This document shows, piece after piece, positions 1 through 25,246 of a stretch of 32,000 nucleotides of DNA. Under the pieces are notes generated by a model. It was not told where the DNA came from and searched no databases. It was given only the letters and a program-made list of their open reading frames with translations. A program made the position numbers and the translations under genes. The stretch's first letter is position 1. The number at the start of each line of letters is the position of its first letter. The DNA is from an uncultured archaeon (GTDB lineage: Archaea > Asgardarchaeota > Jordiarchaeia > Jordiarchaeales > Jordiarchaeaceae): positions 1 to 32,000 of the forward strand of contig CAZECW010000027.1 of assembly GCA_964510585.1 (NCBI GenBank), in the 5' to 3' direction.

Positions 1-857
1 CACTGGATAGAAGGGCTGAAGAACCTTTAAAGGAGCCCCCTGCTTGGAGTAAAAGGTAGAGTCCGAGGTTGCTGCTACGGTTCTGGTGGCTGCTCACCAG
101 CCAAAACCAGTTTTAATAACCTATCTCATTTTCAAATACTGGGGTTTTAGAAAAGGTTTATAAATTCATAAAAAATCCCTGTGATTTCATTCTCTCGGGG
201 TGAATTTGTGTTTAATGCGCAGTTAATGCGTCTCGTCCTTACTAATTGCGTAGATAAATTTCCCATCTTTCTCAAAAGTAGGATAATCTTTTTTATAGGT
301 TTTTCTTGAAGGCAAATTGAGAGTGTTGAACTTCATAATAATTTTATTAGAAATACATAGTTGGATGCACCATTGGAAATACCATCCGGATGAAAATAGT
401 TAAAGGGGGTTGCAAAGCGAACATGCCCGCTACCTGTAGCAACAGTAAAGAGATTTACCATGTTGGAACATGTACCACACTTCAAGAAGAACTTATGAGA
501 CAAAAGGCTAAAACCACGGACAACCCAGCACAAATGGTGATGGAAGAATTTCAATTTTGGAGTCGACAGTTTGACCTTACTTTAAAGAGCTGCTATTTTC
601 TAACTAGGTTTCTGGATTCTGAGCTTAGACATTTGCGGTTAATGGGTGGGAAATCCTTCATTAATAAACTTAGTTTGGGAGTTCTATCTGGTGAAATGAA
701 TGTACTTAGAAAAAGTGTTTATGTAGCCAACTGTGAGGTGGTAGGATGCTTTTCTGTGGTGCTTGAGAGCATAATGTATTCGTCGCTAAACGTAAAAAGT
801 ACGCAAAATTTGGTATTTCCATGGTCATCCGAGTAAAAGATTTTGAAGGTGAGGGTA

Positions 858-6334: not shown

Positions 6335-7249
6335 ATGAAGGCGAAGAAATTGATATATGGACTATTCATATTTGATAGGGTTGGAAAAAGCCTTTACCAA
6401 AAGTTTTATGGAAAAATTAACTTAGACCGCGAACTCCTAACCCGTTTCGTAAGGGAGTTTATAGTTTTCATTCTAAATTTTGACCAAAGCGATAGGGTGG
6501 AATGCCTAAACCTTGAAAACATGAAATTAGTTTACTCCATAATTAAAAACACGGTTTCCGCAATTTCCACGGATCAAAAAGAAGACGAAATGTATCTAAT
6601 GGACAAACTCATCAAAATACATGAACAATTCATTAAAATTTACGAGAACCCCTCCAAAGAGGAAGCAGAAGAAAAAGAAAAGGTAAATGCGCCGACAATC
6701 GAGGAAAACCCATTAATGAATTTTGAGAAGACAGTGGATGCGATCCTGTTTCCCTTTCTAAAAGTAGCTATCCTCGGTTCAAGTGGAGTTGGAAAAACCT
6801 CGGTGATGAAACTAATTGTGGGCGACGAGACGGACACAACATACACTCCCACAGTAGGTGTAGACATTAAAGAGTTTGACATGGACTTCAAAAATATGAA
6901 ACTCATTTTTTGGGACTTCTCAGGCCAACCACATTTCAGAAAACTGTGGCAACCCTTCCTCGAGGGAACTGACATCGTCATACTCGTAACCGATTCCAAA
7001 ACCGAAAACCTAGCGGAAACCAGAGCAATACTACAACTAGTTAAGAGGGAAAAGCCAGACGCAAACATCCTATTAATAGCAAATAAGCAGGACTTACCCA
7101 ACGCAAACCCCCCAGAAACAATAGAAAAGTACATGGGAATAAAGGCATATGGAATTGTGGCAATCGACACAAAATACAGAGAAAAAGTAATAAAAGCACT
7201 CAAAGAGACGATAACGGGACGCATAGAACCCCAACCTCAACAAACCTAA
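6335..7249 (+). CDS. Longin-like domain fused to Arf-like small GTPase (paralog 2)
   Basis: G1 GSSGVGKT, G2 PTVG, G3 WDFSGQ, G4 NKQDLP. N-terminus IYGLFIFDRVGKSLYQKFY. Aligns end to end with 858..1874 apart from a shorter acidic insertion. Confidence 0.85.
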   Translation: MKAKKLIYGLFIFDRVGKSLYQKFYGKINLDRELLTRFVREFIVFILNFDQSDRVECLNLENMKLVYSIIKNTVSAISTDQKEDEMYLMDKLIKIHEQFIKIYENPSKEEAEEKEKVNAPTIEENPLMNFEKTVDAILFPFLKVAILGSSGVGKTSVMKLIVGDETDTTYTPTVGVDIKEFDMDFKNMKLIFWDFSGQPHFRKLWQPFLEGTDIVILVTDSKTENLAETRAILQLVKREKPDANILLIANKQDLPNANPPETIEKYMGIKAYGIVAIDTKYREKVIKALKETITGRIEPQPQQT

Positions 7250-7490: not shown

Positions 7491-8921
7491 TTAGAGGATG
7501 CTCCTTAGTGATACTTCGTTGTTTCCGTTCACGTTTTCGATAACCAAGGCATACATTTCCGTTGGGGGAAACTCGCCGTATATTACTGTTGTCCCTATGC
7601 GTTCCATAACGAAATTGGTTGATGATAGGTGCCTTAAACTGTCTATGCATTGAATGCCTTGCCTTGCCATTGCTAAGATTATTCCCTTCATGTAGCCAGT
7701 TTCAAGAACTATTGCCCCTATATTTCTTCGGAGAGCTTCTTCTCCGAAAATTCTCTCCAAAGTGTCTACTCCAAGGAGCCATAGGAATGTTTCAGCACCC
7801 AGCCGCTTGGTGACCTCAGTTACCGCATTACGGAAATCCAAAATAAACTCTTGTATGTTATCCTTTGAAACACTAATCTCGTTAAGTTCACTTTCTGCCT
7901 CTTCTGTCAATACTAAAAAATGAAGATACTTTCTAATCAGCGAGAGAATCTTCTCATCATTTCCTAATCCCACTGTAGATGATAAGTATTCCATAGCTAA
8001 TTTGGTTGTAGCGGTTTGTGGTAAATTTATAAAAGCGGGTATTTCCTGCCGAATAAAACTTAATACAATTGGCCATAGGAAGTAAACGTATTCTGTTCCT
8101 ATGCCTTTTGCCACTTCAAGGAGGTTAAGTGTACTCTTCCTCAACCCCCCATTCAAAATTTTATCCAGCTCTTGAATGCTTGTGGAGATAAACATACTCT
8201 CTCCTGATTTTTCAAGTTTTGGAGGAGCATATTTAATGTGGGGAAAGTTTATTGGTTCGAAGATGGTGAATCTTCCATTTTTGAGGGAGAAAAGATAGAA
8301 TGGCTGTTTTATCTCCCCACCACGTAGCTTTTCCAGATACAGTTTCCTAACAAGCCTATCCTTCACTATTCCCCTTTCCAGTCTAACCACTGCATCAGTT
8401 AAATAGTCGAGTCTCTGGTTCTCACTTGCCTCCGATACGAAGATCATGTTTGTGTTTGTCTTCGCTCCCAATTCCAACAGAATGCTTTCAAGCGTGGTGT
8501 CACCAAGGGGAATGTTCATGTTTGTTTTAATAGCATCCAAACTGTCAATAATGACTGTTACGGGCCGCTTCTCCGACTGTTGGATCCTATCATTTATCGA
8601 CCTTAAAAATTCTGGCTGCTCAGTATACTCAAATATTGCACTCCTGGGAAGATCAGAGGACAAATAGGAGCGCCTAGCATCCAGAATGTTCCGCTCATTC
8701 AGGCATTCACCTATCCAGGGAAACTGATCCAAAAGTCTATCAGGAGAAACCCGCGAAGAAAGATAGATAACAGTCTTATCCCCAGTGGAAATACCCTTAA
8801 CCATCTCTAAAGCCAAAGTAGTCTTACCCGAACCAGGAGCCCCCTTAATATGAACAGAATATCTTCCCTTCTCCAAAAGACCTATAAGCTCAGCCGGAAC
8901 ATTCCTTTCAACACTCAGCAT
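7491..8921 (-). CDS. GvpD-like / KaiC-RAD55 superfamily ATPase with two RecA-like domains
   Basis: ORF 7491..8936; likely ATG at 8921. Walker A GAPGSGKT, YLSSRVSPDRLLDQFPW, Walker B VIIDS, LDYLTDAVV, LEKLRG. Second domain starts ISTSIQELDKILNGGL with a degenerate P-loop (EVAKGIGTE). Confidence 0.8.
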   Translation of the reverse strand: MLSVERNVPAELIGLLEKGRYSVHIKGAPGSGKTTLALEMVKGISTGDKTVIYLSSRVSPDRLLDQFPWIGECLNERNILDARRSYLSSDLPRSAIFEYTEQPEFLRSINDRIQQSEKRPVTVIIDSLDAIKTNMNIPLGDTTLESILLELGAKTNTNMIFVSEASENQRLDYLTDAVVRLERGIVKDRLVRKLYLEKLRGGEIKQPFYLFSLKNGRFTIFEPINFPHIKYAPPKLEKSGESMFISTSIQELDKILNGGLRKSTLNLLEVAKGIGTEYVYFLWPIVLSFIRQEIPAFINLPQTATTKLAMEYLSSTVGLGNDEKILSLIRKYLHFLVLTEEAESELNEISVSKDNIQEFILDFRNAVTEVTKRLGAETFLWLLGVDTLERIFGEEALRRNIGAIVLETGYMKGIILAMARQGIQCIDSLRHLSSTNFVMERIGTTVIYGEFPPTEMYALVIENVNGNNEVSLRSIL

Positions 8922-9187
8922 CGTTCCCACCCACACTTCTCAAAAAATATAAACATTCCTAAATTAAAAATACACACCCTTTTTTAAAAACATTATTGGT
9001 TAAGGAAGCATACCCCACACTCAAAAACCAAAAAAGAAAACATCAACGAAAAATAAATAATAGAAAACCATACTAACCACACAAATTATTTAAATAAAAA
9101 CAAGAACTCTACATAGTTATTACCCCATGGCAAATCCCCCTTTTTTTTCCCGCCTCATTCCACAGAATTTCTTGGTAACATTACAAC

Positions 9188-9355: not shown

Positions 9356-10291
9356 TTACCGCCTTCTAAGATACAATGCCACCCCAGCAACCACCAAGAT
9401 AATTACTGCAGCCCCTACACCCGCCATTATCCTCAAATTAGCCTGCTGCTGTTGCTGATACGTGTTAAATAGAGTAAACGTAGTCAACATCATAATAAGC
9501 TCATGTATCGGATAAGAAACACTGTAATCCGTCAAATTCCAAGAAAGGTAGAGAACGCCCCCACCAGTATAGTCTTCTCTGTAAACAACATTCTTGACGT
9601 CTGGATTATACCACATGAGCGAATAGTAACCAGTTGCGAATGCGCTGGTTTCGTTGACCAGCCAGCACTCGAAAGTCCCCTTTGCAGTTATAACAGTAGT
9701 AACATTCACGACAGACCCGGTAACAGTGATGTCATATGGAGTTGTGTTTTCCCAACTAAGAATAATCCTTATGCCAGAAGAAGAGTTGTAAAAAGAGCCT
9801 ATGAAGTAGACTCTTATGCCCTCGCTCCAAGTTTTGCCTTCGCTGAGTGGGAATTCAAACATTTTCCATGTATCATTAAAGTGGTACCAGCCGTCAGTCT
9901 CAAAGTAGTAACTGGGAGGCGTGAGATATGTATCATTTCGGTGCATATATATTGCTGTTACGTTTCCATCCATCGAGTAATAGGTCTGAAGTATCATTTC
10001 CGTCTTCACTAATGGGTTTGTTGTACTATAGTTGGTAGTATAGTTGTAGCAGTGGTAAGTTTTTGATTCGTTGAATCCAGCGTTTATATCTGCGAGACCT
10101 GTGACCATCAATTTAGCATTACCTGTTGTAAAAGGCCCCGTTAAGTCGTATTGCCATGTGTCACCTATTGCGGGTATATCTGCGGGCATGCCGCTTAAGG
10201 GAGCTGATAGGGATGGTGTAACAATTGTGGCGGCTAACAAAAGAACCACAGCCACCGCTGCAACAGAAGCAAAGAAAGACCTTTTCCTCAC
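9356..10291 (-). CDS. Exported beta-rich surface glycoprotein with C-terminal membrane anchor
   Basis: GTG start 7 nt after AGGAGGT. Signal peptide MRKRSFFASVAAVAVVLLLAATIV, about 11 N-x-S/T sequons, C-terminal MAGVGAAVIILVVAGVALYLRRR. Confidence 0.8.
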   Translation of the reverse strand: MRKRSFFASVAAVAVVLLLAATIVTPSLSAPLSGMPADIPAIGDTWQYDLTGPFTTGNAKLMVTGLADINAGFNESKTYHCYNYTTNYSTTNPLVKTEMILQTYYSMDGNVTAIYMHRNDTYLTPPSYYFETDGWYHFNDTWKMFEFPLSEGKTWSEGIRVYFIGSFYNSSSGIRIILSWENTTPYDITVTGSVVNVTTVITAKGTFECWLVNETSAFATGYYSLMWYNPDVKNVVYREDYTGGGVLYLSWNLTDYSVSYPIHELIMMLTTFTLFNTYQQQQQANLRIMAGVGAAVIILVVAGVALYLRRR

Positions 10292-10999
10292 TCCATAACC
10301 TCCTTCTAAATTGCAAATATATTTGTTGCTTCTAATTAAAAAGATTTTCGCCTATCTGCTGTGTTGCATAATTCTTATTTTTTAATTTATTTATATATTA
10401 TTTTGAATTTTTTGCAATTTCACATTGTTAATTTGAAAAAATTTAAGAAAATTAAATAAATTCATTAGAAAAAATAAAATTATACAACACAGCACGCCTA
10501 TCAAATTAGCACAATTAACTAGGAGTTACCTATTGTGTGCATGTTTGAACGTGTTCTAAGCCCCTCTATGGAAGCCTGCTCGCAGTTGTTCCACCAGTAA
10601 AGCAAGCTGAAAAACACGTCCAGGAAGAAGGGCGTTTGAGACGAAAAATGTACAGCACACAACAGGTGCCACCGGGTTAACAGTCTCATCAAATTGTACA
10701 CGATGTAACGGGTATGTATTTTTGGTGTTTGGTATTGTGGAAGTGTTTTTCTTAACTCCTCTAATAAGTCTCAGAATTGGAAAAAAGGTTAATAGTGCTT
10801 CTTTTAAGGCAACCAACAAACAAAAATACATACCCTCTGTGTAAAACACACACTACATTGTGCCATCAAATTGTGCCCTTCAAAAGACAAAAGGGAGGCT
10901 AGTTAACCTACTTCTCAAAAAAATAATTATTACATTGTGTTTTTGGGAGAAGTAAACTTAATATGTTTGGTGCACGGTAATAATTTCTTGGTGTTATCC

Positions 11000-11764
11000 T
11001 TGCCTGCTGTTGAGGTTAACGGTGTAAATATTTCCTATGAGGAGGTTGGCTCCGGAGAGGCTATTGTCTTTGTACATGGCCTTTGGGTTGACAGGAGGTG
11101 CTGGCTTCACCAGAAAAAACACTTCTCAAAGGACTTTAAAGTTGTAATATATGATCTCAGGGGACATGGTGAATCCGGTAAGCCGTCCAAGCAGTACAGC
11201 GTCTGGACACATGGAGAAGACCTCTACGCCTTGATAAAGCACTTAGGACTTAAACAGGCCAACATTGTTGGGCACTCGATGGGGGGCATGGTTGCCTGCG
11301 TTTTGGCTGTGAGACACCCTGAAGTAGTTAAGCGCCTGGTGCTAGCGGATACTATGTGCAACGTCATACCTGAAGCCGTAGGTGAGAGGGTGGCGTGGGT
11401 TAAGAAGATGAGCATGGAGGAAATAGGGCGCCTCATAGCTAAGAGGGGTATAAAGCTCGTAGGAGAAGATGCCATACGCCTCGTGGTGGATATGGTTAAG
11501 GGGCAGACTCCAGAGGTATACGTGAGGAACGCAGTTGCAACCTCAGGCTTCAACATATGTGGTGAGCTCAAGAAAATCGATAAACCAACCTTAATCATAG
11601 TGGGCGGAAAAGATGAGGCAACACCAGCCTGGATGGCGGAAACACTACACGGACTCATTCCCAACTCTGAACTCTATATCATGAAGGGAGCAGGACACCT
11701 AACATGCCTCGACAATCCCAAAGAATTCAACAAAGCCATAAGCGACTTCCTATCAAAAACATAG
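11000..11764 (+). CDS. Alpha/beta hydrolase (enol-lactonase/esterase-like)
   Basis: ORF 10937..11764; TTG at 11000 gives the family-typical MPAVEVNGVNISY. Motifs FVHG, YDLRGHGES, nucleophile elbow GHSMGG, GAGH. Confidence 0.9.
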   Translation: MPAVEVNGVNISYEEVGSGEAIVFVHGLWVDRRCWLHQKKHFSKDFKVVIYDLRGHGESGKPSKQYSVWTHGEDLYALIKHLGLKQANIVGHSMGGMVACVLAVRHPEVVKRLVLADTMCNVIPEAVGERVAWVKKMSMEEIGRLIAKRGIKLVGEDAIRLVVDMVKGQTPEVYVRNAVATSGFNICGELKKIDKPTLIIVGGKDEATPAWMAETLHGLIPNSELYIMKGAGHLTCLDNPKEFNKAISDFLSKT

Positions 11765-12434
11765 CCACAAAAACCAAGCAAAGCACGAAAACACACCTCG
11801 GCTCGAGCAAAATTGGAAAAACAGAGATAGCAATACCTCACAAATAATTCAACCTCCCCCCTTTTTGAACTATTTGATCAGGCATCGAACAGTGCTGGGC
11901 ATCTGGCCCTCATTCAATAAAATAAGGGTTGCTTTCTTGGGCTAACATCCACACTACATGCTTTTTAAATATGTCTGGTGCAAGCTGTCCTACTGCTTGA
12001 TTTTACTCTTTAGGTATGTTCTCTTGGTGTGCTAAAAATTTTTTCAATATGGCTTCGCGGTTGGGCGGGTGTTTGTGTGTGGTCTGTGGTGGGTTTTTTC
12101 TAGTTTTTCTATTTCACATTTTTTTGTCCTTTTTGAGAAATGATAAAAAATACTGCTTTCTACTATTTCAAGGTAAAATGAGGGTTCATTCTAACGGGTG
12201 CGATCTGCCCACAAATCGACCTTCAACTTTTCAAATTAAATTGTGTATTTGCCGAAATTTTTGGTTGCAGAAACTTCACAGATTATAACCAAATAGTTGC
12301 TTGAAACTTGGAAGCAAAATGCTGGTAAAGATATCAGTAAAGTAATATAGGAGAAGAACTAATTAGTAAAAGTGAGACATAAATAAGTGGAGAAGCTTTT
12401 TTAACTTTTAAAATAGAGGGAGCCGAGGTGTGTT

Positions 12435-13088
12435 GTGTTGCCTGGAAATCCGCGCGCAGTTAAGGTGCAGCTTGACACTTTGAGGAATGACCACCTGATT
12501 TTATCCTCCCTAGTCCGTTTAATCATAAAGTACGTTTTAGATTATGTTGCAAGTAACTTTGGTGTCAGTGGGTCTGCGGAGACACTGGATGAGCTGGAAA
12601 ACTTGCTACTTAGAGTCGCACAAGAACATCCAGCAGAAGAAGCGGTAGTATACGGAATTTATAAAGGTGAGAGCATGCTTGCCGGCGCGGTGGGCACTAT
12701 AGCTCGGCGTTTCGGAAAAGAGGCACCCAAAAGACTGGTTAACACACTCGGGTTAATGGAAACACTTATAGAATCAGGGAGCCTCTACGACTGCCTATCT
12801 AAGTACAAGGCTTCCCTTGTTGGGATAGGTTTAATGAGGGAGGATGAATTAATTCTGGAAGACTCTTGTAACGAAGTTCTCGTTAAACTTCGAGGACACT
12901 GCACATATGCCAACGTCTGCACCCAGCTCCACAAAGAGGGGGTGTACAACGTATTCGGCTCCGTACCCTGCGGCAGACTCCTCGCATTCGCCGGCATAGC
13001 CGAAGCCACACTAAACAAAGGCTACGACATAAAAATCACAAAATATAATCCTCCAAACTGCGAAGGAAAAATATTTGAAATCCCCTAA
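12435..13088 (+). CDS. Putative V4R/HNOB-like ligand-binding domain protein
   Basis: GTG after GAGGTG. Helical N-terminal half, then C-terminal VLVKLRGHCTYANVC...PCGRLLAFAGIAE...YDIKITKYNPPNCEGKIF with Cys spacing like the V4R/MetOD1 fold. Confidence 0.55.
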   Translation: MLPGNPRAVKVQLDTLRNDHLILSSLVRLIIKYVLDYVASNFGVSGSAETLDELENLLLRVAQEHPAEEAVVYGIYKGESMLAGAVGTIARRFGKEAPKRLVNTLGLMETLIESGSLYDCLSKYKASLVGIGLMREDELILEDSCNEVLVKLRGHCTYANVCTQLHKEGVYNVFGSVPCGRLLAFAGIAEATLNKGYDIKITKYNPPNCEGKIFEIP

Positions 13089-13380
13089 ATCACACACCGA
13101 TATTCTCCAACAAACATTAACCACCACAAGTTCATAAGAGGGAAGAATAGCTAAATCACCGTGGGGGGATATTTGCCACTCCACACAAATTTAGATTCAG
13201 GGAGCCATTCCCGCCAAACAACATACGCTAGAAACGTTTTATAATTATGAGAATATATCATCATACCCAAAGTTTTGTGAAGCTTAATTAAATGCGCAGC
13301 TTTTTCATACACAAAGATTAAATATTAGAAAGAAGAAGGTAAGAAGAAATCAATATATTAAGGGAAAGGAGGATAGAAGT

Positions 13381-14715
13381 GTGACAGAACCTGAAGTTGA
13401 AGTCGTTGTGGTTCCTAGGTGGCGTCAGCCACTTTCAGGGCTTTGCGCTTTGCTTCTAGGAGTGCTTATTGCTCTTTTCACTTGGTGGATTTTTGCTGAC
13501 ATCAGATTTTCTCTGGGACACTTCATGTTCGGCTGGTACCCTGAGGTAGCATCGCTCCTGGGCGGATGGGGGCTTCTTGTCGCGGTCTGGCAGGCTTGGC
13601 TGGATAACTATCCATACTCCAAGCTTAAGAGGTCTTGGGCAGTGGGTATCGCGGGAACCGTTCTAAACATAGTTGTGGTTTGGTTCATGGTTTATGTGGT
13701 GTTCTACCAACTGATCGGTAGCTTGGTCCCTGAGGCCAGCTTTCCGAAGCTTCTCGCGTACGGGTTCCCCATCGAAACTGCGCTTTACATTTCTTCATCC
13801 GCTACTGGTATGGTCACCGGGGCTACGTTTTCCTTCGGTTTACTTTGGGTAGCAGGCACAATGTTTTGGCCCCTCTACCACGCCAAGCAGCCGAAAAGGG
13901 GACTTTACAGTGTCCTTCTCGCATTCGCCATTGGGCTGACCGCTTGGTACTTTTTACTCCTTCCACCTGTCTCTCAGATGGCGCAGAACTCCGCAGCAAT
14001 ATTAACGTTTATGGGCCTCTCAGAGCTTCAACCAGCCATGAGCACAATATACACCATTATAATCTACTACTACACAGTCTCGTGGTTCTACCTTAACACT
14101 GGAGCCCTGAGAATGCTTAACTTGACTCAGTGGGTAATTTTCTTCGCACTGCTCACAATGCTAACCTGGGAGTATGAGCCTTGGATAAGGCTGAAAAAAC
14201 AGCCTTTGGTAGGCATGGTCGCTTTCGTCTCTTGCACGTTTCTAGGTGTGCTCTTCGGACTCGTCCTATCACAAATGGTATACACGCCGCCTATCCCCTC
14301 GTCTTACGTGTGGTTTGCGTTGGGCCAAACGTTACTGGCTCCTATGGCAGAAATTGCGAGGGAGGGTGCGAGGTGGACGGCTCCGCTAGTCTTAGCAGTG
14401 TTCTTCATTATGGCAGAGTTTATCCTCTATTTCTACTTTGACAACTGGCCCAAAAAGTACAATAAACTGGTCAACATCGCGGTGAGAACTGTGATAGTCG
14501 TCCTGGGAGGGCTGGCAATGCTTTATCTATACTACCTATTCTCGGCCAGAATCATTGGCGACCCGGACATACTCACGATGCTAAGTTACCCCATACTCTT
14601 CCTAGACCCTAGACCACTGACAAACCCATTACCCTTCCAGCTCTGGCTCCTATGGGTTCTACTGCTACACGGATATGTATGGAGGAAATGGCCCATCTGG
14701 AAGCCCCTAACATAA
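13381..14715 (+). CDS. Polytopic membrane protein, putative transporter, with internal repeats
   Basis: 444 aa, highly hydrophobic (about 10-12 TM segments). Recurring (W/Y)P-x4-6-QP-xx-G motif. Confidence 0.75.
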   Translation: MTEPEVEVVVVPRWRQPLSGLCALLLGVLIALFTWWIFADIRFSLGHFMFGWYPEVASLLGGWGLLVAVWQAWLDNYPYSKLKRSWAVGIAGTVLNIVVVWFMVYVVFYQLIGSLVPEASFPKLLAYGFPIETALYISSSATGMVTGATFSFGLLWVAGTMFWPLYHAKQPKRGLYSVLLAFAIGLTAWYFLLLPPVSQMAQNSAAILTFMGLSELQPAMSTIYTIIIYYYTVSWFYLNTGALRMLNLTQWVIFFALLTMLTWEYEPWIRLKKQPLVGMVAFVSCTFLGVLFGLVLSQMVYTPPIPSSYVWFALGQTLLAPMAEIAREGARWTAPLVLAVFFIMAEFILYFYFDNWPKKYNKLVNIAVRTVIVVLGGLAMLYLYYLFSARIIGDPDILTMLSYPILFLDPRPLTNPLPFQLWLLWVLLLHGYVWRKWPIWKPLT

Positions 14716-14720
14716 AAAGA

Positions 14721-14750
14721 GGAGGGCAAGAACCCTCCAATTTCTTTTCA
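14721..14750 (+). terminator. Possible terminator hairpin GGAGGG-caagaa-CCCTCC followed by a T-rich tract
   Basis: 6-bp stem at 14721-14738, 6 nt after the stop codon at 14715, then AATTTCTTTT. Confidence 0.4.
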
Positions 14751-14810
14751 ACCCAAATTTTATGAATAATAAACTTCTCATAGAAAGCCAAAAGCAGTGG
14801 GATAAGCAAA

Positions 14811-14843
14811 ACTTTTTTATTAAAAAAGTAGGTCTAATATAAA
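14811..14843 (+). promoter_or_regulatory. Inverted repeat ACTTTTTT-att-AAAAAAGT next to a TATA-like TAATATAAA
   Basis: Perfect 8-3-8 palindrome at 14811-14829; TATA-like element at 14835-14843, upstream of the hydrolase/ligase operon. Confidence 0.4.
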
Positions 14844-14923
14844 CCCTAGCCTGTATGGATTTACCTTGATGAAAGGTTTGAGGGACGGTGAAGAAATTTT
14901 TCGTTATTTGGGAGTGGTTTGGT

Positions 14924-15784
14924 TTGCCGTATACTGAACTCAGGGATGGTGTGAGACTGTTTTTCGAAATCCGGGGAGAAGGGCCTCCCCTTGCGATGAT
15001 AGAAGGGTGGGGATACTCCCGATGGATGTGGTTTAAACAGATTAACCACTTCTCAAAAAAGTATACATGCATCGTCTTTGATAATAGGGGGGTGGGTTTG
15101 AGTGATAAGCCCGATGAACCTTATAGTGTCGAGTTGTTCGCTGATGACTTGAGGGAGCTCCTTGACCATATTGGAGTTAGTAGGGCGCACATACTAGGGA
15201 TTTCTATGGGGGGCTTTATTGCCCAAAAGTTCGCCTTAAAGTATCCGGGGAGAGTGTTGAGCCTGATCCTTGTATCCACCCACTTTGGGGGAGAAAAAGC
15301 AAGGCAAACGCCAAAGGAAACCATGGACGCTATTTTGAGTATAAGAGAGGAGGACCTTGGGGCTGGAGAAGCCTTAAAGAGAAAGATGTCCTTTGCATTT
15401 AACCCAAAATACTTAGAGGAAAACCCAGAAGAAATAGACCAGATAATATCGTGGAGAATTGAGGAAGCTCAGCCAAGATACGCTTGGCTCAGGCAGGCCG
15501 AGGCTGTCCAAAACTTCAACCTTGGAAACAAAGCATCGCAAATAAAAGCCCCCACCCTGATTGTGGCAGGCACCAATGATCGGGTTGTCCCACACCAGAA
15601 CGCCGAGCTACTACTGGAAACCATTCCCAACTCGAAACTGGTACTTTTTGAGGGGGGCTCCCACCTCCTCTTTATAGAAAACGCGGACACCTTTAACAAA
15701 GTGGTTATGAAATTTCTAAACGAGGTGGATGAAGGAGTGTTTAGCACAAGTAAAAGAAAGATAACGATAAATGTTAAGAGGTGA
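14924..15784 (+). CDS. Alpha/beta hydrolase (enol-lactonase / PHA-depolymerase-like)
   Basis: ORF 14888..15784; likely TTG at 14924. FDNRGVGLSDKP, nucleophile elbow GISMGG, GGSH. Stop lies 4 nt before the ligase ATG. Confidence 0.9.
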   Translation: MPYTELRDGVRLFFEIRGEGPPLAMIEGWGYSRWMWFKQINHFSKKYTCIVFDNRGVGLSDKPDEPYSVELFADDLRELLDHIGVSRAHILGISMGGFIAQKFALKYPGRVLSLILVSTHFGGEKARQTPKETMDAILSIREEDLGAGEALKRKMSFAFNPKYLEENPEEIDQIISWRIEEAQPRYAWLRQAEAVQNFNLGNKASQIKAPTLIVAGTNDRVVPHQNAELLLETIPNSKLVLFEGGSHLLFIENADTFNKVVMKFLNEVDEGVFSTSKRKITINVKR

Positions 15785-15788
15785 GCGC

Positions 15789-17315
15789 ATGTCTTGGAGC
15801 TGGATTGGAGACTGGTCTGAGAGGCGGGCTTCACTAACACCCAAGAAAGAAGCCCTAATATATGAGGAAAAATCATTCACCTACGGTGAACTGAACTCTA
15901 GGGCCGATAGACTTGCAGGATATCTCGCTAAGAAAGGTGTCGGCAAGAGAGACAGAGTCTCATACCTTCTCAGGAACTGTGTAGAATGCTATGACACCTT
16001 CTTCGCGACAGGAAAGCTCGGAGCCATCTTGGCCCCTATGAACATAAGACTTTCTCCCAGAGAGATGACTCTCTTAGTGAAGCAAGTAAAACCAAAAGTT
16101 TTCATTTACGACCCAGAGTTCGAGGAAATCGTAAAGGAGATAAAGAAAGAGGTTAAGAGAGTCGACTTTCTTTCTATAGGCGAGGGAGGAGAGTACGAGG
16201 CAGCCCTCGATGAAGGAGGCGAAAAGCCGAAAAGAACGCTTGCCTCAATGGAGGATCCACACTTGATGCTGTTCACCGGCGGAACCACTGGTTTGCCTAA
16301 GGGGGCTATTCTTTCCCACAGGATGATTTTCTGGAACTCAGTGAACACTATAGTTACGTGGGGAATAACTCCTGAGGACATATCACCAATAGTTTTCCCA
16401 CTCTTCCACACTGGAGGGTGGAACACACTCGCAGTCCCCCTAATCCATGTTGGAGGCAAAATGATAACTTGGAGAAAATTCAACCCCGACGACGTCTTAG
16501 ACGCAGTGGAAAGGTACAAGTGCACCATAGTAATAGGCGCACCAACAATGTTCCACATGATGATGAACTCGCCGAAATTCGAAAAAACAAACATATCCTC
16601 AGTTAGAATGTGGATATCAGGAGGCGCCCCATGTCCCCTCCCAGTTATGGAGGCGTTCTGGAAGAGGGGCGCCGTCTTCATCCAGGGCTATGGACTAACG
16701 GAGGCGGGGCCAAACAACTTTTACATGCCAGTCGAATACATGAAGGAGAAGCACAGGTCGGTGGGGCTGCCATTCTTCCACAACGAGGTTAAACTTGTCA
16801 ACGAAAAGGGGAAAGAAGTTGGGGTAGGCGTGCCAGGAGAACTCCTCATCAGGGGACCCCACACCTTCTCAGGATACTGGGAGATGCCCGAAGAGACATC
16901 AAAAACTATAGACAAGGAAGGTTGGGTTCACACAGGAGACATAGTCATGAGGGACAGCGACGGCTTCTACTACATAGTAGACAGGAAGAAGGACATGTAC
17001 ATTAGTGGAGGCGAAAACGTATACCCAGTTGAGATTGAAAACGTAATATACCAGCACCCGAAGGTGGCAGAGGTTGCAGTCATAGGGGTTCCAGACGAGA
17101 AGTGGGGAGAAGTGGGAAAAGCAATAATTGTGCCCAAGCCGGGAGAGACCATAACCAAGGAGGAAATAGTGGAGTTCTGCAAAGGGAAACTGGCAAAGTA
17201 CAAGGTGCCGAAATACGTGGCACTTGTCAACTCGCTTCCAAAGTCACCTGCAGGAAAAATACCAAAAAAAGACCTGAGAGGGGAATACGGGAAGCCGCAG
17301 GACGAAATACCCTAG
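15789..17315 (+). CDS. AMP-forming acyl-CoA synthetase (long-chain fatty acid-CoA / MenE-like ligase)
   Basis: ATG at 15789 after GAGGTGA. Motifs FTGGTTGLPKG, GYGLTE, HTGD, RKKDMYISGGENVYP, PKSPAGKI. Confidence 0.92.
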   Translation: MSWSWIGDWSERRASLTPKKEALIYEEKSFTYGELNSRADRLAGYLAKKGVGKRDRVSYLLRNCVECYDTFFATGKLGAILAPMNIRLSPREMTLLVKQVKPKVFIYDPEFEEIVKEIKKEVKRVDFLSIGEGGEYEAALDEGGEKPKRTLASMEDPHLMLFTGGTTGLPKGAILSHRMIFWNSVNTIVTWGITPEDISPIVFPLFHTGGWNTLAVPLIHVGGKMITWRKFNPDDVLDAVERYKCTIVIGAPTMFHMMMNSPKFEKTNISSVRMWISGGAPCPLPVMEAFWKRGAVFIQGYGLTEAGPNNFYMPVEYMKEKHRSVGLPFFHNEVKLVNEKGKEVGVGVPGELLIRGPHTFSGYWEMPEETSKTIDKEGWVHTGDIVMRDSDGFYYIVDRKKDMYISGGENVYPVEIENVIYQHPKVAEVAVIGVPDEKWGEVGKAIIVPKPGETITKEEIVEFCKGKLAKYKVPKYVALVNSLPKSPAGKIPKKDLRGEYGKPQDEIP

Positions 17316-18334
17316 CATGGCCCCCACTTAATTACTAAAGCGTCCCACGCATAACCTATACCTGCGCTAACTAGTACCACAAGGCTTCCATCCCTTATTT
17401 TTCCGCTTCTTAAACCCAACTCTAAGGATAGTATCTGGTCGCACTGTCCCAGATGGCCGTACTCCTCGAAATAGGTTGTCTGGTTCTCTTTTAGTCCCAG
17501 CTCGCTGAGTATGTAGTTATGTGCACTGCGTTTCATATGGAGAATTGCCAGGTAGTCTATGTCTTTGACGGTGTAGCCGCTTTTCTCCAGGGCATCGTTG
17601 ATCACCTTGAGGAAGTTTTTCATTGATAGGTCGTCGAGTCTGCGCTTCATATCCTCTGGGTCTCTTACGTCAAGGTAGTGGAGTTTACGCTCCAGGGTTT
17701 CGTGGCTTGTGGGCATTACGGTGCCTCCAGCCGGTACGTAGACGTCGTCCGCGAAGGAGCCGTCAGACATGAAGGCAGCACCTAATATGTGGTTGCTGGG
17801 ATGGTTTTTTCTGAGAACTGCCGCCGCGCCCCCAGCGGCTAGGTTGAACATGAACCTTGTTCTTTGGTTTTGATAATTTATGAGGTCGCAGTTTCTGTAT
17901 CCTGCGGCTACAAGGACTGTGTTTATGTCCTCGTTGGCTATCATCATGTCTTTTGCCAGTTTTAAACCGACAATCATTGTTCCGCAGCGTTGAGATATGT
18001 CGAATGCCCAAGCGTTAATTGCGCCAACCTCGTGTTGAAGCTTAATCCCGGCAGTAATCATTGGGTACTCCTTGTACTCCTCTCCAGACCATATAACTAA
18101 GTCGATATCCTCAGGATTGACATTCCCCCTTTCAAGTGCCGCCTTTGAGGCTTCGACACCCATGGATATTGGGTGGTCTTTATCGCTTGATGGCATAACT
18201 TTCCTTAGTATTCCCATCTTTTCCTCAACGATTTGCTTAGGTACTCCTGAAGCCCTAGCTATATCCTCGCTTGTGTGGAAACCTTTAGGTACGTAAACAC
18301 CTATCGAAACAACACCCACAGATGGCTTACCCAA
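17312..18334 (-). CDS. 3-oxoacyl-ACP synthase III (FabH)-like condensing enzyme, GHxGQ subfamily
   Basis: ORF 17312..18370; likely TTG at 18334. Catalytic Cys in AFDISQRCGT, His in ILHMKRS, YGHLGQ at the usual GNT position, SAGIG oxyanion loop. Confidence 0.88.
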   Translation of the reverse strand: MGKPSVGVVSIGVYVPKGFHTSEDIARASGVPKQIVEEKMGILRKVMPSSDKDHPISMGVEASKAALERGNVNPEDIDLVIWSGEEYKEYPMITAGIKLQHEVGAINAWAFDISQRCGTMIVGLKLAKDMMIANEDINTVLVAAGYRNCDLINYQNQRTRFMFNLAAGGAAAVLRKNHPSNHILGAAFMSDGSFADDVYVPAGGTVMPTSHETLERKLHYLDVRDPEDMKRRLDDLSMKNFLKVINDALEKSGYTVKDIDYLAILHMKRSAHNYILSELGLKENQTTYFEEYGHLGQCDQILSLELGLRSGKIRDGSLVVLVSAGIGYAWDALVIKWGPC

Positions 18335-18846
18335 AATGAGCACCACCTTCCCTTCAAAATGGAGAACCACAAAGGCCTAAATGAGTTATGCTTAATAAAT
18401 TTTGCAAATGTGTTATATATACTTCACTGCTTTGCAGGATGTATTTAATTTTCCTGTTTGGTATGCTTTTCGAAAACTTGTGTGTCTCATTTAGCTTTTA
18501 GCGTCTATTCCTACTGGTTATGTGGTTTTTCATCTATGTTTTCTTAGCAGTGCTTCTTGCGACTCACAAACTATGCTTCCTAAAATGGGTGGATTTAAAA
18601 AGGGGAGCCTTTAAGAGGAATTTTCTTAGCTGAGCCCTTTGTTTGTAAATTCATTTATTTTTCTGTGGCTTCACTCCCCTTGATGGCCAAAAAGTAGATA
18701 CTTTTATTTATAATTGGGGGGAATAATAAGAAAAGAACCAATTGTTTGAGAATATGTGGTGAAAAAACAAGTTTGTTTCTATGTTTTTGGGAGGGTTGCG
18801 GTGTTATTACTTGGTGTGTTGTGTGAATTAGAGTTTTTGTGAAGGG

Positions 18847-20718: not shown

Positions 20719-21105
20719 CTAGAATTCTTTTAAGAATCCACTATCATTCTGGAGTATACTGTAAACCTTATTCATGTCTGAATTCCAGTACATGTGAACC
20801 AGCATGTTTCGGAAACCCGCTAGGTCTGATAAATTGTTTGCTAAATCAGTTAGTATTATGTTTGATTCTGAAAGTATCTCGAAAGTTTCCTTATAAGTTA
20901 AAGGCTTTCTATGCCCCCTTTCCGCAATTACATGGTTAGCAATATCTATTGCCGACTGAATGCTTACCAGCATGGCGTGTAAAACCATGTTTCTCTTATC
21001 TCTATCTTTTGCTAAATCCTCTTTTGAAATAGACTGATAACGCTCCCAGTCACTAAGAGACGCTTTTAATTCCTGCAAATGCTGCAGTATTCCCTCCACG
21101 TCCAT
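20719..21105 (-). CDS. hepT: HEPN/DUF86 (HepT-like) ribonuclease toxin, probably truncated by a premature TAG
   Basis: SIQSAIDIANHVIAE and catalytic FRNMLVHMY (R-x4-H-x-Y). The frame continues past the TAG as ERVKDLLRK to a second TAG at 20689-20691. Confidence 0.85.
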   Translation of the reverse strand: MDVEGILQHLQELKASLSDWERYQSISKEDLAKDRDKRNMVLHAMLVSIQSAIDIANHVIAERGHRKPLTYKETFEILSESNIILTDLANNLSDLAGFRNMLVHMYWNSDMNKVYSILQNDSGFLKEF

Positions 21106-21107
21106 AA

Positions 21108-21517
21108 CTATATCCTCGCTAGAAATTTTTTGTTAAACCAGTCAAGAGTCTCCTTGTAGTCGAGATAGTTTGAGATAACCTCAGCCTCAAATCTCACGCG
21201 CTTAACATTATCCCTAGAAAAAACAAGCTGGTCGCTCCTTATCACCTCATACTGGAAGGTGACTGGAGCCGTGTTAAGATCTTTTACGTCAAACTAGTCG
21301 AGGCTTCACCTTACTCTCCAAAGCCCTTGCAACACTCATAGTAAACTTCATCAAACCGTAGGAATCATAATCTCCCCCCCACATAGATAGCTACATCTAC
21401 ATCTCTAAATCCCCGATCTCCAAGAAAAGAGCCGAAAACGTATCCAAAATCAACATCGCCGAACCCCCACAGAACCCCACCAATCCTTCCCAGTATTTCT
21501 TCCCTTTCCTGAACCAA
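21108..21517 (-). pseudogene. mntA: MNT (minimal nucleotidyltransferase, MntA-like) antitoxin with two frameshifts
   Basis: Not in the ORF track; reconstructed by hand. From TTG at 21517 (after GGAGG): VQEREEILGRIG...YVFGSFLGDRGFRDVDVAIYV / (shift at G7 run 21374-21380) GDYDSYGLMKF...KVKPRL / (shift near 21293) FDVKDLNTAPVTFQYEVIR...FEAEVISNYLDYKETLDWFNKKFLARI*. Ends 2 nt before the HEPN ATG. Confidence 0.88.
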
Positions 21518-22381: not shown

Positions 22382-25246
22382 TTATTTTACTCGCCTTTTA
22401 TCTAATTGTTCGATGAGGTTCATAAGTTCTTTCTTAAGTTTTTCTTTGCGTTTTAATTCTTTAGCGGTTATTACTCCCCCCTGTTCTTTTCTCTGCAATT
22501 CGTCGATTTGCATGCGGATTTCAATGAATCTGTCCCTTATGGTTTCTATCCCCTCTTTGTCTTGTGAGATCTCCCACATGGATTCTATGGTGTAGGGTAC
22601 CTTGCTTAGAATTATGCTTGTTCGGATATAATCCATTTGAATCTTGTCATATCTGGGTTCTATCTGAGATTTTCTGGCTTGAAAATCCATTTCACTAATT
22701 TTTCCTTCGCGATATTCCTGGTTCAGTTTCTGCAACTTTAAGCCCAGATTGTTGAGTTCCTCTTGGAGCTTCTCCCGTTCCCTAAGCAGTTTCACAATTT
22801 TCTTTCTCTGAAGTGTCTCTACCTTATCCAAATCAATCAAGGAAGACAATATCTCCAATAGAGAAGCCTTTAATGTTGAAACTTCACCCTTCCAATTTAC
22901 AAGCTTTTCCCAGTTTTGCTCCTCAGCGCTAGACACAAATTCACGTAGCCTTTTTCTAATCCATTTCTCTTCTTCCACAGTGACACCACTGGTGATACAG
23001 GTTGCGGTCAGTATATTTCCATCCTCCCGAATAAAGGTGCCGAACTCCGTCTCCAACTTTCTCAGACCGCCCTTCTTCATCTCGGCAAGGAAAGTCTTAA
23101 CCGCTGACATAAAGCCCGAAACCAAAGTCGCATCCTGTTCCATCTTGAAAAAGTCAAAAGCCCACACAGTAACACCACTTGGAATGTAGTCAACAATAAT
23201 GTTCTCAAGACTAGCCATAGCCCTCAACGGAACCATGCGTCTCCTATGTACTCTACTAGCCACCATTCCCCCCACAGCCGCCAATCCCACAACAACTCCT
23301 AAAGCGAGGTAACGTGTAATTTTCTGATTTTGCTCAGATAACATATTAGACACTAACAGGATTAAACCAGTTACCTCGGGATTAATAACCACGTAATATG
23401 GAGCCTTAAAGTTAATGGTAACAGTACCAGAAACACTCGACGCATAAAATCTTACGCCACTAGCTACGAAACGAATTTCGTGAACTCCAAAATCTGTGCC
23501 AAAATCCACAATGAAACTATAAGTACCGTTCCCATAATCCGTTTTATTATAAATAGGTAAAACCTTCGCACCCTCATAGGCCATTATTGCAGCACCAGCC
23601 AACCCCTCCCCTGTTACATTATCATAGTAGAAAAGAGTTATTGGGACAGTATTAGGATACTCAACATGTTCAGGAAAACTAGTCACAACCAAGCCAGTAG
23701 CAATTAGAGGCACAATTTCCAGAACAGTTTCATTATATCCCACTGATAATCCATCCCTAAAACTAATCGTCACATTAAACATTCCGTGGGTGGTGGCTGT
23801 ACTTCTCACATTCCAACTAAACACCACACTAGGAACACCCGACAAAGCCTTCGTATTTGTATAATTCAACCTTTGAGATGAATCATAAATATCCAGAGTC
23901 ACACTTCCACTAACAGAAGCATCAAAGCTCACAGCGATCTCAAGAAAATCATCCAGGGTGGCGTTTTCAACAGGAACCCCACCAACCATAAAACCTATGC
24001 CGGAAAGATAATTGGGAGCCGTGCAGTTAACAGTCCAAGTACCATTACCAGCAACAAAACTAATAGCATCGGGAGGGTGAGAGTCCAATGCAACCCAATT
24101 GGCACCATCAAAAGCCATCGAGCTCGAATCACCCCAGTCTGAAGGAATACCCGTAATGTTAATATGATTAACACCAGTGCCAGTCATAGGGAAGGCGTTT
24201 TCAGCATCGATGGTAACATTCCAAAAAGCGTCACTATTATTATAAACAACAAAATTAGTTGTAGCAGTGAAATTCCTGGCGTAGGTTACGTTCCAAACAT
24301 AAGAAAAACTAACAGGGGCCCACCATGTAGAAGCTACATCATAAAAGATATATCCCGTTGAAACAGGTGTTTCGCTACCGCTAATCCAGTTTCCATTACC
24401 CCTACTGGCGTCTAAAACAGTTGAACCATTAATAGTTAAACCCACTTCTGATGGAAGAAAAATATTACTAACATTTACTTTCAGCTTAAAATCAACATTC
24501 AACGGTGACCAGGTTCCAGACTGGTATTCGTATGCGTATCCTCCACTAGACGGTGAGACTTGTTTCCAGTAAAACTTGGAGGAGTCTATGTTTTCAATAC
24601 CGATGAAAAACGTGTTATCAAATGTAGTGGAAGTGTCAAGGAATTGATGGCCAAAATCCACATCAAACCAAATGGGGTTACCAGAGGGTATAGAAATGGT
24701 TGAAACATTTTTAATTAAATTATTCGGTACGGGCACTCCACCGCTGTTAATTGCATTGTAGACATAAAAGTGACCGATGCTTCCCCCACCGGGCGACCTT
24801 AACTCAACACTAACATTATCCAGGTAGGCGTTACTCGTCAATCTAAATGACATGGCAAGAAGGCTAATTTTTGTGTCGCCGTTGTACGGGTTAGGATTTG
24901 GTTCAATTGTAGTATTTGGTGCATTAATACCAGTGAGTGTTAGGTTTGCCCAGATGATTTTCCAACCGCTGGGACAGGGAACATAAATATCTGAAGAAGT
25001 GTTCGTGTAATTTGGCACATTATCATAATTGTTTGTAATATACAATAAAGCATTTAATTGATCTCCGCTGCCCGTGTATGATTTTGTCATGTTGTCCAAG
25101 TTATTCAAGTTTAGGAAGGTGAGGGGCTGATTCGGGCTTAATGTGGCGAGTATAGCGATTGTTGAAATGGCAAAAATCAGAAAGGTTGCTAACGCTACCC
25201 TTTCTTTCAATTTTATCCTCCCAAAGATAGAATTTTTAGTCTTCAT
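22382..25246 (-). CDS. Large receptor-like membrane glycoprotein: ectodomain, TM helix, cytosolic longin-like domain and coiled coil
   Basis: N-terminal signal/anchor VALATFLIFAISTIAILATL. About 600-aa beta-rich region with ~23 N-x-S/T sequons. TM YLALGVVVGLAAVGGMVA-SRVHRRR, then IIVDYIPSGVTVW...DATLVSGFMSAVKTFLAE (longin-like) and charged heptads. Confidence 0.8.
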   Translation of the reverse strand: MKTKNSIFGRIKLKERVALATFLIFAISTIAILATLSPNQPLTFLNLNNLDNMTKSYTGSGDQLNALLYITNNYDNVPNYTNTSSDIYVPCPSGWKIIWANLTLTGINAPNTTIEPNPNPYNGDTKISLLAMSFRLTSNAYLDNVSVELRSPGGGSIGHFYVYNAINSGGVPVPNNLIKNVSTISIPSGNPIWFDVDFGHQFLDTSTTFDNTFFIGIENIDSSKFYWKQVSPSSGGYAYEYQSGTWSPLNVDFKLKVNVSNIFLPSEVGLTINGSTVLDASRGNGNWISGSETPVSTGYIFYDVASTWWAPVSFSYVWNVTYARNFTATTNFVVYNNSDAFWNVTIDAENAFPMTGTGVNHINITGIPSDWGDSSSMAFDGANWVALDSHPPDAISFVAGNGTWTVNCTAPNYLSGIGFMVGGVPVENATLDDFLEIAVSFDASVSGSVTLDIYDSSQRLNYTNTKALSGVPSVVFSWNVRSTATTHGMFNVTISFRDGLSVGYNETVLEIVPLIATGLVVTSFPEHVEYPNTVPITLFYYDNVTGEGLAGAAIMAYEGAKVLPIYNKTDYGNGTYSFIVDFGTDFGVHEIRFVASGVRFYASSVSGTVTINFKAPYYVVINPEVTGLILLVSNMLSEQNQKITRYLALGVVVGLAAVGGMVASRVHRRRMVPLRAMASLENIIVDYIPSGVTVWAFDFFKMEQDATLVSGFMSAVKTFLAEMKKGGLRKLETEFGTFIREDGNILTATCITSGVTVEEEKWIRKRLREFVSSAEEQNWEKLVNWKGEVSTLKASLLEILSSLIDLDKVETLQRKKIVKLLREREKLQEELNNLGLKLQKLNQEYREGKISEMDFQARKSQIEPRYDKIQMDYIRTSIILSKVPYTIESMWEISQDKEGIETIRDRFIEIRMQIDELQRKEQGGVITAKELKRKEKLKKELMNLIEQLDKRRVK

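Follow-up and report, generated by a model that had tools for sequence, protein, structure and literature searches.

A predicted N-glycosylated surface protein with a cytosolic longin-like domain and a SHOCT-like tail in an Asgard archaeon

In eukaryotes the longin fold serves as a docking platform for small GTPases, and longin domains play docking roles in the pairing of SRX with SR-beta in the signal recognition particle (SRP) receptor, in Mon1-Ccz1, in TRAPP, and in the sigma and mu subunits of the adaptor protein (AP) complexes. Asgard archaea encode dozens of small GTPases, longin proteins and roadblock proteins; to our knowledge, how any of them is tied to the membrane or to an external cue is still unknown. 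Here we describe an Asgard gene at positions 22382–25246 of the minus strand of the window (the whole 32,000-nucleotide stretch of contig CAZECW010000027.1 that was analysed). Its 954 amino acid (aa) product, which we label P0001, is predicted to be a surface glycoprotein with a longin-like domain on the cytosolic side of a single transmembrane helix.

Longin and roadblock domains form dimers that serve as conserved small-GTPase platforms (PMC3747258; PMC10933270). In Asgard archaea both domain types are greatly expanded and have been shuffled extensively (bioRxiv 10.1101/2020.10.19.343400; PMC10933270; PMC4917890). Fusions of longin domains to GTPases (longin-Arf, or Rag-like ‘ArfR’) are attributed to Klinger et al. 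2016 as cited in PMC4917890, and are treated by Tran et al. 2024 (PMC10933270). The small-GTPase, longin and roadblock genes of Asgard archaea are rarely found in operons, so that partners are hard to predict (PMC10933270). Because the longin expansions are well documented, a longin domain in such a genome is not in itself new. In the literature that we searched there was no transmembrane-anchored glycoprotein with a cytosolic longin domain, and no longin domain followed by SHOCT-like helices, which is not proof of absence. We concluded that this combination is a real, undescribed architecture and a plausible membrane-anchored docking platform.

The open reading frame (ORF) and its parts lie in the window as follows.

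22382–25246, minus strand: whole gene of P0001, a predicted single-pass surface glycoprotein of 954 aa (intact ORF; 44 full-length homologs; ratio of nonsynonymous to synonymous substitution rates, dN/dS, 0.08–0.16)
25133–25246, minus strand: aa 1–38, basic N-terminus and hydrophobic segment (aa 17–37), a predicted signal peptide or N-terminal anchor (hydropathy)
23381–25132, minus strand: aa 39–622, all-beta ectodomain, predicted as a string of beta-sandwich or Ig-like modules, with all 23 sequons (AlphaFold2 (AF2) model, sequon count, Foldseek)
23234–23380, minus strand: aa 623–671, membrane-proximal hydrophobic helix, Q/N-rich spacer, Gly/Ala/Val-rich transmembrane helix and RVHRRR (hydropathy, ectodomain model)
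22847–23233, minus strand: aa 672–800, predicted cytosolic longin-fold domain, signature L-V-S-G-F-M-S-A-V-K-x-F ... W-x-G (AF2, VIA-align, hhalign)
22385–22846, minus strand: aa 801–954, helical tail with two helix plus SHOCT-like units (alignment A1 of the complete tail, Pfam in relatives, heptad scan)
22646–22723, minus strand: SHOCT-like motif 1, at about aa 842–867 (alignment A1)
22403–22483, minus strand: SHOCT-like motif 2, at about aa 922–948 (alignment A1)

A Kyte-Doolittle scan of P0001 revealed two hydrophobic segments: aa 17–37, preceded by Lys/Arg (N-terminal window up to 2.38), and the transmembrane helix at aa 645–666, followed by RVHRRR. The N-terminal feature also occurs at the N-termini of the paralogues. 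All 23 N-x-S/T sequons of P0001 were located within aa 52–573 (10.8 ± 2.8 are expected from the shuffled ectodomain), and none was found in the 274-aa tail. Across 41 members of the family, 1015 sequons occurred in 21,864 ectodomain residues versus 20 in 11,538 tail residues, or 4.64 versus 0.17 per 100 residues, a 27-fold bias. The bias, in P0001 and in the family, fits a topology in which the glycosylated part is outside and the tail inside. The layout is that of a type I N-glycosylated membrane protein, with an N-terminal signal, a sequon-bearing ectodomain, a single transmembrane helix and a positive-inside flank, and we therefore regard P0001 as a predicted N-glycosylated single-pass surface protein whose tail is cytosolic. 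An earlier note on this DNA had described a receptor-like protein with a beta-rich glycosylated ectodomain of ~600 aa, ~23 sequons and one transmembrane helix. The ORF is intact and this layout was borne out, but the note did not describe the signal or anchor at aa 17–37.

Compared with the ortholog in a close relative (locus L004), the ectodomain has a dN/dS of 0.157, and the longin domain and the helical tail have values of 0.083 and 0.085, respectively. These low values indicate a real gene under purifying selection, and make the tail, about twice as constrained as the ectodomain, the most constrained part of the protein. No Pfam or NCBIfam family scored above threshold in the whole protein, in the tail or in the longin domain. 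Thus P0001 has no kinase, cyclase or methyl-accepting chemotaxis protein (MCP) domain, as had been noted previously; specifically, the scans revealed no cytosolic output domain of a histidine kinase, MCP, Ser/Thr kinase or cyclase. The membrane-proximal stretch (helix-QNQ-transmembrane helix-RRR) was also considered as a cleaved archaeosortase-type C-terminal sorting signal, which is ruled out here because ~290 conserved, constrained residues follow it. Elsewhere in the window (9356–10291, minus strand), a sequon-rich surface protein of 311 aa has the same hydrophobic helix, Q-rich spacer, Gly/Ala/Val transmembrane helix and RRR, and ends at the RRR. The paralogues of P0001 show this membrane-proximal arrangement too. 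Judged by this layout, the longin glycoprotein family resembles a common type of surface protein with a C-terminal anchor, to which a cytosolic module has been added.

Relatives of the cytosolic part were gathered with a word-indexed search using the tail (44 proteins) and with an exhaustive phmmer search using the 129-aa domain (57 matches, 23 of them below 1e-10). Alignment A2, comprising 45 longin-like domains related to aa 672–800, has the signature L-x-S-G-F-x-S-A-I-x-x-F-x-x-E ... W-x-G, and the longin part of the tail alignment A1 contains 31 invariant columns. The motifs quoted in the earlier note were placed correctly, with LENIIVDY at aa 680, DATLVSGF at aa 705 and WKGEV at aa 785. 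The AF2 model built on A2 (predicted local distance difference test, pLDDT, 88.7; predicted TM-score, pTM, 0.82) showed a beta-beta-alpha-beta-beta-beta-alpha-alpha topology with a further C-terminal helix. DSSP assigned strands at residues 9–16, 22–27, 59–62, 65–71 and 75–81, and helices at 39–55, 86–106, 108–112 and 119–128; a short helix at residues 2–8 is the juxtamembrane linker. The model thus has the five-stranded antiparallel sheet between helices that is typical of the longin superfamily, with helices at the C-terminus and no long one at the N-terminus.

Structure searches with this model agreed closely. All of the top 50 Foldseek matches in the PDB were longin or roadblock proteins (TM-scores up to 0.66), including AP sigma, Fuzzy, zeta-COP, SRX, Sec22b, Mon1/Ccz1, VAMP7 and LAMTORs. 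VIA-align, which is independent of Foldseek and was run against 48,161 chains, likewise ranked longin or roadblock proteins in almost all of its top ~40 places. Its Z-scores were 10.9 for Fuzzy LD1, 10.8 for AP-3 sigma, 10.6 for SRX (root-mean-square deviation 2.4 Å over 105 aa), 10.4 for Sec22b and VAMP7, ~10 for Mon1/Ccz1, and 9.3 for the longin domain of a Lokiarchaeota Roadblock-Longin protein. About 30 longin entries matched over residues 8–129 with Z from 10.9 to 9.0, and roadblocks matched over residues 4–109 with Z of 7–8. In the AFDB Swiss-Prot set the top matches were SR-alpha, AP sigma and Fuzzy. A profile search of PDB sequences with A2 yielded chance-level matches only (E ≥ 0.3), so that the fold assignment rests on the AF2 model; a search of a protein atlas with the tail reached a best score of 0.79, under the useful range. 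One paralogue in the genome (L009) passes the Pfam family Fuz_longin_1 with 30.1 bits at a cut-off of 26.1. We concluded that the modelled cytosolic domain of P0001 is longin-like, in keeping with what had been proposed from the letters.

Profile comparison connected this domain to the longin domains of GTPases in the same window. When A2 was aligned by hhalign to profile A4, built from ~110 aa at the N-terminus of longin-Arf GTPases, the match had a probability of 98.5% (E 2.2e-15, 112 columns). Against the profile of full-length longin-Arf GTPases the probability was 98%, and the match was confined to residues 8–136. Negative controls, namely the ectodomain profile and two neighbouring proteins of unassigned family, gave probabilities of 0.04–0.12%. 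Single GTPase sequences aligned in register at 8–9% probability, and the comparison became decisive only with the profile of the GTPase N-domain. The match and its controls together indicate that the cytosolic domain is a paralogue of the longin domain in both GTPases of the window.

The C-terminal ~150 aa had been described as ~140 aa of coiled coil. Instead, the alignment and a heptad scan resolved two units with a Pro/Gly linker between them; each consists of a helix and a G-x-I-S/T-x-x-(D/E)-(F/L) motif. SHOCT is presumed to be an oligomerisation module, according to its Pfam description. This family (PF09851, gathering score 27 bits) passes in two relatives, P0041 (28.6 bits) and P0039 (28.5 bits), in the stretch aligned to about aa 842–867 of P0001, and is sub-threshold (15 bits) in P0019 and P0036; P0001 is itself unlisted for SHOCT and has a weak GvpG match over the same stretch. 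On the other side of the membrane, the ectodomain model (aa 39–645, AF2 pLDDT 84.2) is all beta, with a helix at residues 585–606, and ends in a helical stalk that runs into the transmembrane helix. Foldseek related it to generic multi-Ig or beta-sandwich surface proteins with TM-scores of 0.13–0.39. The matches included a phage tail tip, PrgB, MG domains of alpha-2-macroglobulin, Eph and RPTP ectodomains, the Nitrosopumilus S-layer, and Big-1/PKD/CARDB proteins, and the fold search thus gave no functional clue and no ligand-binding signature. In one homolog the membrane-proximal ectodomain module matched Filamin/Invasin_D3/Big_1.

We searched 301 Asgard genomes with the profile of the complete tail (A1). 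Matches were found in 11 of them, at one to eight per genome: in all six genomes of the window’s own family (its own genome counted), in all five of a sister family, and in none of 28 other families. Both tail-bearing families belong to one Asgard order, for which the source names are Freyarchaeota, Jordarchaeaceae and Ca. Freyarchaeum deiterrae. The DNA of the window is present in several hot-spring metagenome runs, and no RNA run is listed among the sequencing runs that contain it. In the window’s genome the A2 profile matches ~26 proteins, six of which are membrane-anchored and the rest soluble. A tree of the longin domains in this genome placed the membrane-anchored family in a clade of its own on a long stem (100/100), with a zinc-ribbon protein as its sister (91/83); because the backbone is unresolved, no donor lineage can be named.

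Within the family, three size classes were distinguished. Members of ~950–1170 aa have the full ectodomain, with internal duplication of a 224-aa module in P0003 and P0020; members of ~610–690 aa have in common with these no more than the N-terminal ~280 aa of the ectodomain (~27% identity); and members of ~334–347 aa consist of signal peptide, Q-rich spacer, transmembrane helix and tail, with no ectodomain. This last form is conserved in at least five genomes and is nested inside the 954-aa type in the longin-domain tree. Across paralogues the tail is 50–90% identical versus 25–80% for the ectodomain, and the tail value is always the higher. The ectodomains of the size classes are homologous and modular rather than unrelated. 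The earlier note had called for a survey of proteins with the same tail and variable ectodomains, and this expectation was largely right: the tail is indeed kept on ectodomains of ~300 to 860 aa and on the ectodomain-less form, but the ectodomains are homologous modules. Several paralogues occur per genome, some of them in tandem with other large glycoproteins. A copy at a contig end (C21) of the window’s genome likewise belongs to the family.

Individual members also merit description. The close-relative ortholog (L004:10001–13492, and P0020) has a tail 88–91% identical to that of P0001 and is 209 aa longer, and the module corresponding to aa 379–602 of P0001 (224 aa) is tandemly duplicated in it. 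At L037:13131–15244 (G006:C1), three short frames of 132, 228 and 206 aa lie beside an intact 953-aa member from the sister family and match pieces of the same protein; they are probably a broken second copy of the family gene. More distant members of the A2 family, all annotated as hypothetical, were found in Lokiarchaeota/Promethearchaeota, Helarchaeota and Hodarchaeota. Among these are giant, sequon-rich Ig-like proteins with a transmembrane helix directly before the longin-like domain (P0091, P0081) or with that domain at the far C-terminus (P0062, P0064). Placing a longin domain on the cytosolic side of a surface protein is a recurrent principle in Asgard archaea. One further protein from a Joint Genome Institute (JGI) metagenome (P0087, 714 aa) has a transmembrane helix, a longin-like domain and ~230 more residues, and its source name is KaiC/GvpD/RAD55-type ATPase.

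We propose that P0001 is a longin docking platform anchored in the membrane on a single-pass N-glycosylated surface protein. Its likeliest client would be a small GTPase, or the homologous longin domain that a longin-GTPase fusion carries. We give this reading a probability of about 0.45, a little short of even. It builds directly on the topology, the glycosylation-site bias, the fold, the homology to the longin domain of longin-Arf, the family distribution and the selective constraint. Outside the cell, P0001 would display a chain of beta-sandwich modules on the helical stalk. Inside, directly after the transmembrane helix, would come the conserved longin domain and then the two helix plus SHOCT-like units seen in every paralogue. 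This helical part may oligomerise the tails, whose longin domains could then form a membrane-anchored docking platform that recruits the cytosolic partner to the membrane sites of the glycoprotein. That the ectodomain-less paralogue keeps the tail argues that the tail has its own function at the membrane.

Two genes of the window encode possible clients of such a platform.

843–1874, plus strand: longin-Arf GTPase 1, whose database form starts at Met7 (Pfam Arf 2.9e-19; context only)
6335–7249, plus strand: longin-Arf GTPase 2 (Pfam Arf 3.9e-22; weak Clat_adaptor_s match at aa 7–105; context only)

The N-terminal domain of longin-Arf GTPase 1 aligned in register with the longin family of P0001. 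The gene for P0001 lies 15–21 kb from the longin-Arf genes in the window, its ortholog lies 1.8 kb from them in Ca. Freyarchaeum deiterrae, and the sister family shows no such linkage. In the complete genome of Ca. Freyarchaeum deiterrae (locus L023) the gene order is HAAS, PadR, MFS, receptor (1071 aa), radical-SAM/SPASM and three tandem longin-Arf genes, followed by a homolog of window gene 5426–6277, a GTPase-like gene, TackOD1-AsnC and a KaiC-like gene. The window holds the same gene set plus ~8 kb of inserted acyl-lipid genes, and the PadR-HAAS regulator pair is a divergent neighbour of the longin glycoprotein gene that is conserved within the genus.

Other genes at these loci were noted in passing. 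The acyl-lipid set (10937–18370), which lies between the radical-SAM gene and the longin-Arf/KaiC block, is also present at L004 and absent at L023; it contains two alpha/beta hydrolases, two unknowns, an AMP ligase and a KAS III-like gene. The KaiC-like ATPase gene (7491–8936, minus strand) belongs to the gene block that surrounds the longin-Arf genes and is conserved between the window and L023. The stretch 20719–21517 (minus strand) contains a HepT-like toxin gene (Pfam 2.1e-29) and, upstream of it, an MNT-type partner that is apparently split into two short frames (21108–21245 and 21365–21517). Neither L004 nor L023, although syntenic, has this gene pair. Two genes without a Pfam family, 5426–6277 (plus strand, 283 aa) and 390–836 (plus strand, 148 aa), each stand directly before a longin-Arf gene, and a homolog of the 283-aa gene (L023:13265–14173) stands directly upstream of the three tandem longin-Arf genes. 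Neither the 283-aa nor the 148-aa product matched the longin profile. By its position, the product of the 283-aa gene is a more obvious candidate for a GTPase partner than the receptor is.

Some links between the longin family and small GTPases do exist elsewhere. In the soluble paralogue L007 (G000:C118:13147–14145) the longin domain is joined to a GTPase of the Ras family (Pfam Ras 2.1e-45). Two longin/roadblock-like genes adjoin Ras-like GTPase genes (G000:C117:1615–2767 and G000:C193:34555–36224). The first of these pairs (1615–2205 and 2237–2767, same strand, 32-bp gap) is MglB/MglA-like. A complex prediction for the longin domain with full-length longin-Arf 2 scored 0.00, which, for one pair run with no controls, counts neither for nor against binding.

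A number of results weigh against a GTPase client for P0001. The neighbourhoods of 33 family genes from 11 genomes (419 kb) were surveyed, together with two further loci. Five GTPase genes came to light, all of them at one syntenic locus; a density of ~30–39 GTPase genes per 3.78 Mb predicts ~3–4. The sister-family loci, which have no neighbours in common with the window, and the loci of other paralogues had no GTPase gene within ~10 kb. The linkage to longin-Arf genes is thus shared synteny or ancestry within one genus only. The A2-family domain is also fused to winged helix-turn-helix (wHTH) domains (L005, L006; P0068, P0071), to CARF-Csm6 HEPN (L010) and to a zinc ribbon (L008), as well as to leucine-rich repeats (LRR; P0073) and a prenyltransferase toroid (P0084); these fusions to modules other than GTPases suggest a general interaction module rather than a dedicated GTPase regulator. 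In the longin-domain tree the membrane clade showed no affinity to the GTPase-fused longins. Pfam gave no match on aa 672–800 of P0001 even at E ≤ 1, so that no longin threshold was reached, and P0001 itself reached no SHOCT threshold. Some longin domains act apart from GTPases, for example in SNAREs (PMC10933270). For the P0001 family, GTPase binding or regulation, and signalling itself, are arguments by analogy only.

One of these fusions, L010 (G000:C210:311–2002), encodes 563 aa with an N-terminal A2-family longin-like domain (E 8.6e-8) and CARF, Csm6 6H and Csm6 HEPN domains. By its domain content it is predicted to be a longin domain on a CRISPR-type cyclic-oligoadenylate effector.

The original suggestion that the receptor signals directly to small GTPases fared less well than the description of its parts, since it has analogy behind it, while the longin-Arf linkage is genus-level and the domain also sits on modules other than GTPases. 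More specifically, engagement of the ectodomain might cause the tail to recruit or activate small GTPases (longin-Arf or others) at the membrane, by longin-longin heterodimerisation or by direct binding of the GTPase domain; we consider this extended scheme doubtful. If it were true, the closest archaeal relatives of eukaryotes would already possess a prokaryotic pathway from a receptor to small GTPases, together with an anchoring principle like an inverted SR-alpha/SR-beta or like Ragulator.

Of the other explanations, the one that survives best is that P0001 is purely structural: its beta-sandwich ectodomain would contribute to the glycoprotein coat or to attachment, and its tail would do no more than oligomerise or cluster the protein or pin it to a cortical scaffold, with no part for GTPases or signalling. 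Such a role is favoured by the ectodomain, which resembles adhesins, S-layer proteins and Ig-array surface proteins and has no ligand-binding signature, by the number of paralogues, several to a genome and some arranged in tandem with other large glycoproteins, and by the anchor layout in common with the tail-less 311-aa surface protein. The presumed oligomerising function of SHOCT, whose Pfam threshold was passed in two members, and the lack of a general GTPase gene linkage point the same way. However, the tail is more constrained than the ectodomain along its whole length and has 31 invariant longin columns, which seems beyond the needs of clustering, and the conserved ectodomain-less paralogue retains it. 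On balance we regard a purely structural role as somewhat unlikely.

Less probable still, in our judgement, is that the longin domain docks a partner other than a GTPase or is itself a regulatory or sensor module. The protein would then tie the envelope to a pathway such as transcription or defence, or be controlled from within the cell (inside-out). This idea draws on the A2-family fusions to wHTH, CARF-Csm6 HEPN, zinc ribbon, LRR and prenyltransferase toroid, on the zinc-ribbon protein as the nearest branch in the tree, on the PadR-HAAS pair as a conserved divergent neighbour within the genus, and on the many Asgard longin fusions to two-component signalling domains described by Liu et al. 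(bioRxiv 10.1101/2020.10.19.343400). Yet it has no candidate partner, the PadR-HAAS linkage is only genus-level synteny, and all solved structural neighbours of the domain are trafficking or GTPase-platform longins.

Finally, a SNARE-like or cargo-receptor-like trafficking protein, acting in membrane fusion or in sorting by coat-like machinery, would use the building blocks of Sec22b, VAMP7 and Ykt6 (the Sec22b and VAMP7 longins scored Z 10.4 and TM 0.63–0.66, and Loki longins are said to have no coiled-coil or SNARE partner region, PMC4917890), but is very improbable, because the order of ectodomain, transmembrane helix, longin and helices is inverted relative to longin, SNARE motif and transmembrane helix, no Synaptobrevin or SNARE family matched in Pfam even at E up to 1–5 (the two features on which P0001 was rejected as a longin SNARE), the helices are broken by Gly/Pro and carry SHOCT-like motifs with no continuous 16-layer heptad, and the 600-aa glycosylated ectodomain is without a SNARE counterpart.

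The preferred reading of P0001, as a membrane-anchored longin platform, has practical value. A longin domain directly under the membrane is a purifiable handle, and the ~290-aa tail could be used as bait for a first membrane-proximal partner in the GTPase/longin network. If that partner is a GTPase, the finding would be immediately relevant to how eukaryotic membrane-identity signalling arose; if it is not, the family would still be a new class of Asgard surface protein. The family also suggests that a longin domain, a helical oligomerisation region and a transmembrane anchor were combined in Asgard archaea, though not in SNARE order.

Compared with known systems, P0001 is nearest in homology to the Asgard longin-GTPase fusions, whose longin domain is homologous by profile (98.5%) and which occur in the same organism, with a shared neighbourhood within the genus. 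In contrast to these fusions, the P0001 longin is unfused to a GTPase, lies under a transmembrane helix and a glycosylated ectodomain, is followed by SHOCT-like helices, and forms its own long-stem clade. The giant Lokiarchaeota/Promethearchaeota surface proteins (such as P0064, 2774 aa, and P0091, 1510 aa) share a sequon-rich Ig-like ectodomain, a transmembrane helix and a cytosolic A2-family domain, with weak ectodomain similarity to P0001 in P0091 and P0081. Their domain is only 25–34% identical, however, they have no double SHOCT-like tail, and in P0062 and P0064 the longin stands hundreds of residues from the transmembrane helix. The longin SNAREs Sec22b, VAMP7 and Ykt6 likewise combine a longin, a helical region and a transmembrane anchor (Sec22b has the top Foldseek TM-scores, 0.63–0.66), whereas P0001 has the inverse order, no SNARE motif and a large ectodomain.

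Platforms for guanine nucleotide exchange factors (GEFs) and GTPase-activating proteins (GAPs), as well as related assemblies (Mon1-Ccz1, Fuzzy-Inturned/CPLANE, TRAPP, Ragulator/LAMTOR and bacterial MglB), share the fold with P0001 (Z 8–11), and it is Fuz_longin_1 that the genome paralogue passes; in Ragulator, roadblock and longin platforms are also anchored to the membrane. These are soluble or lipid-anchored multi-subunit complexes, whereas P0001 is a single-pass glycoprotein, of which none of them is the tail; no catalysis is inferred for P0001. The closest analogy in logic for the proposed mechanism is SRX of SRP receptor alpha with the Arf-like GTPase SR-beta (PDB 1nrj, 2go5, 5ck3), a top-ranking match in which a longin links an Arf-family GTPase to the membrane. 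There the GTPase is anchored and the longin soluble, whereas P0001, which has no NG domain, has an anchored longin, and its GTPase would be the soluble partner.

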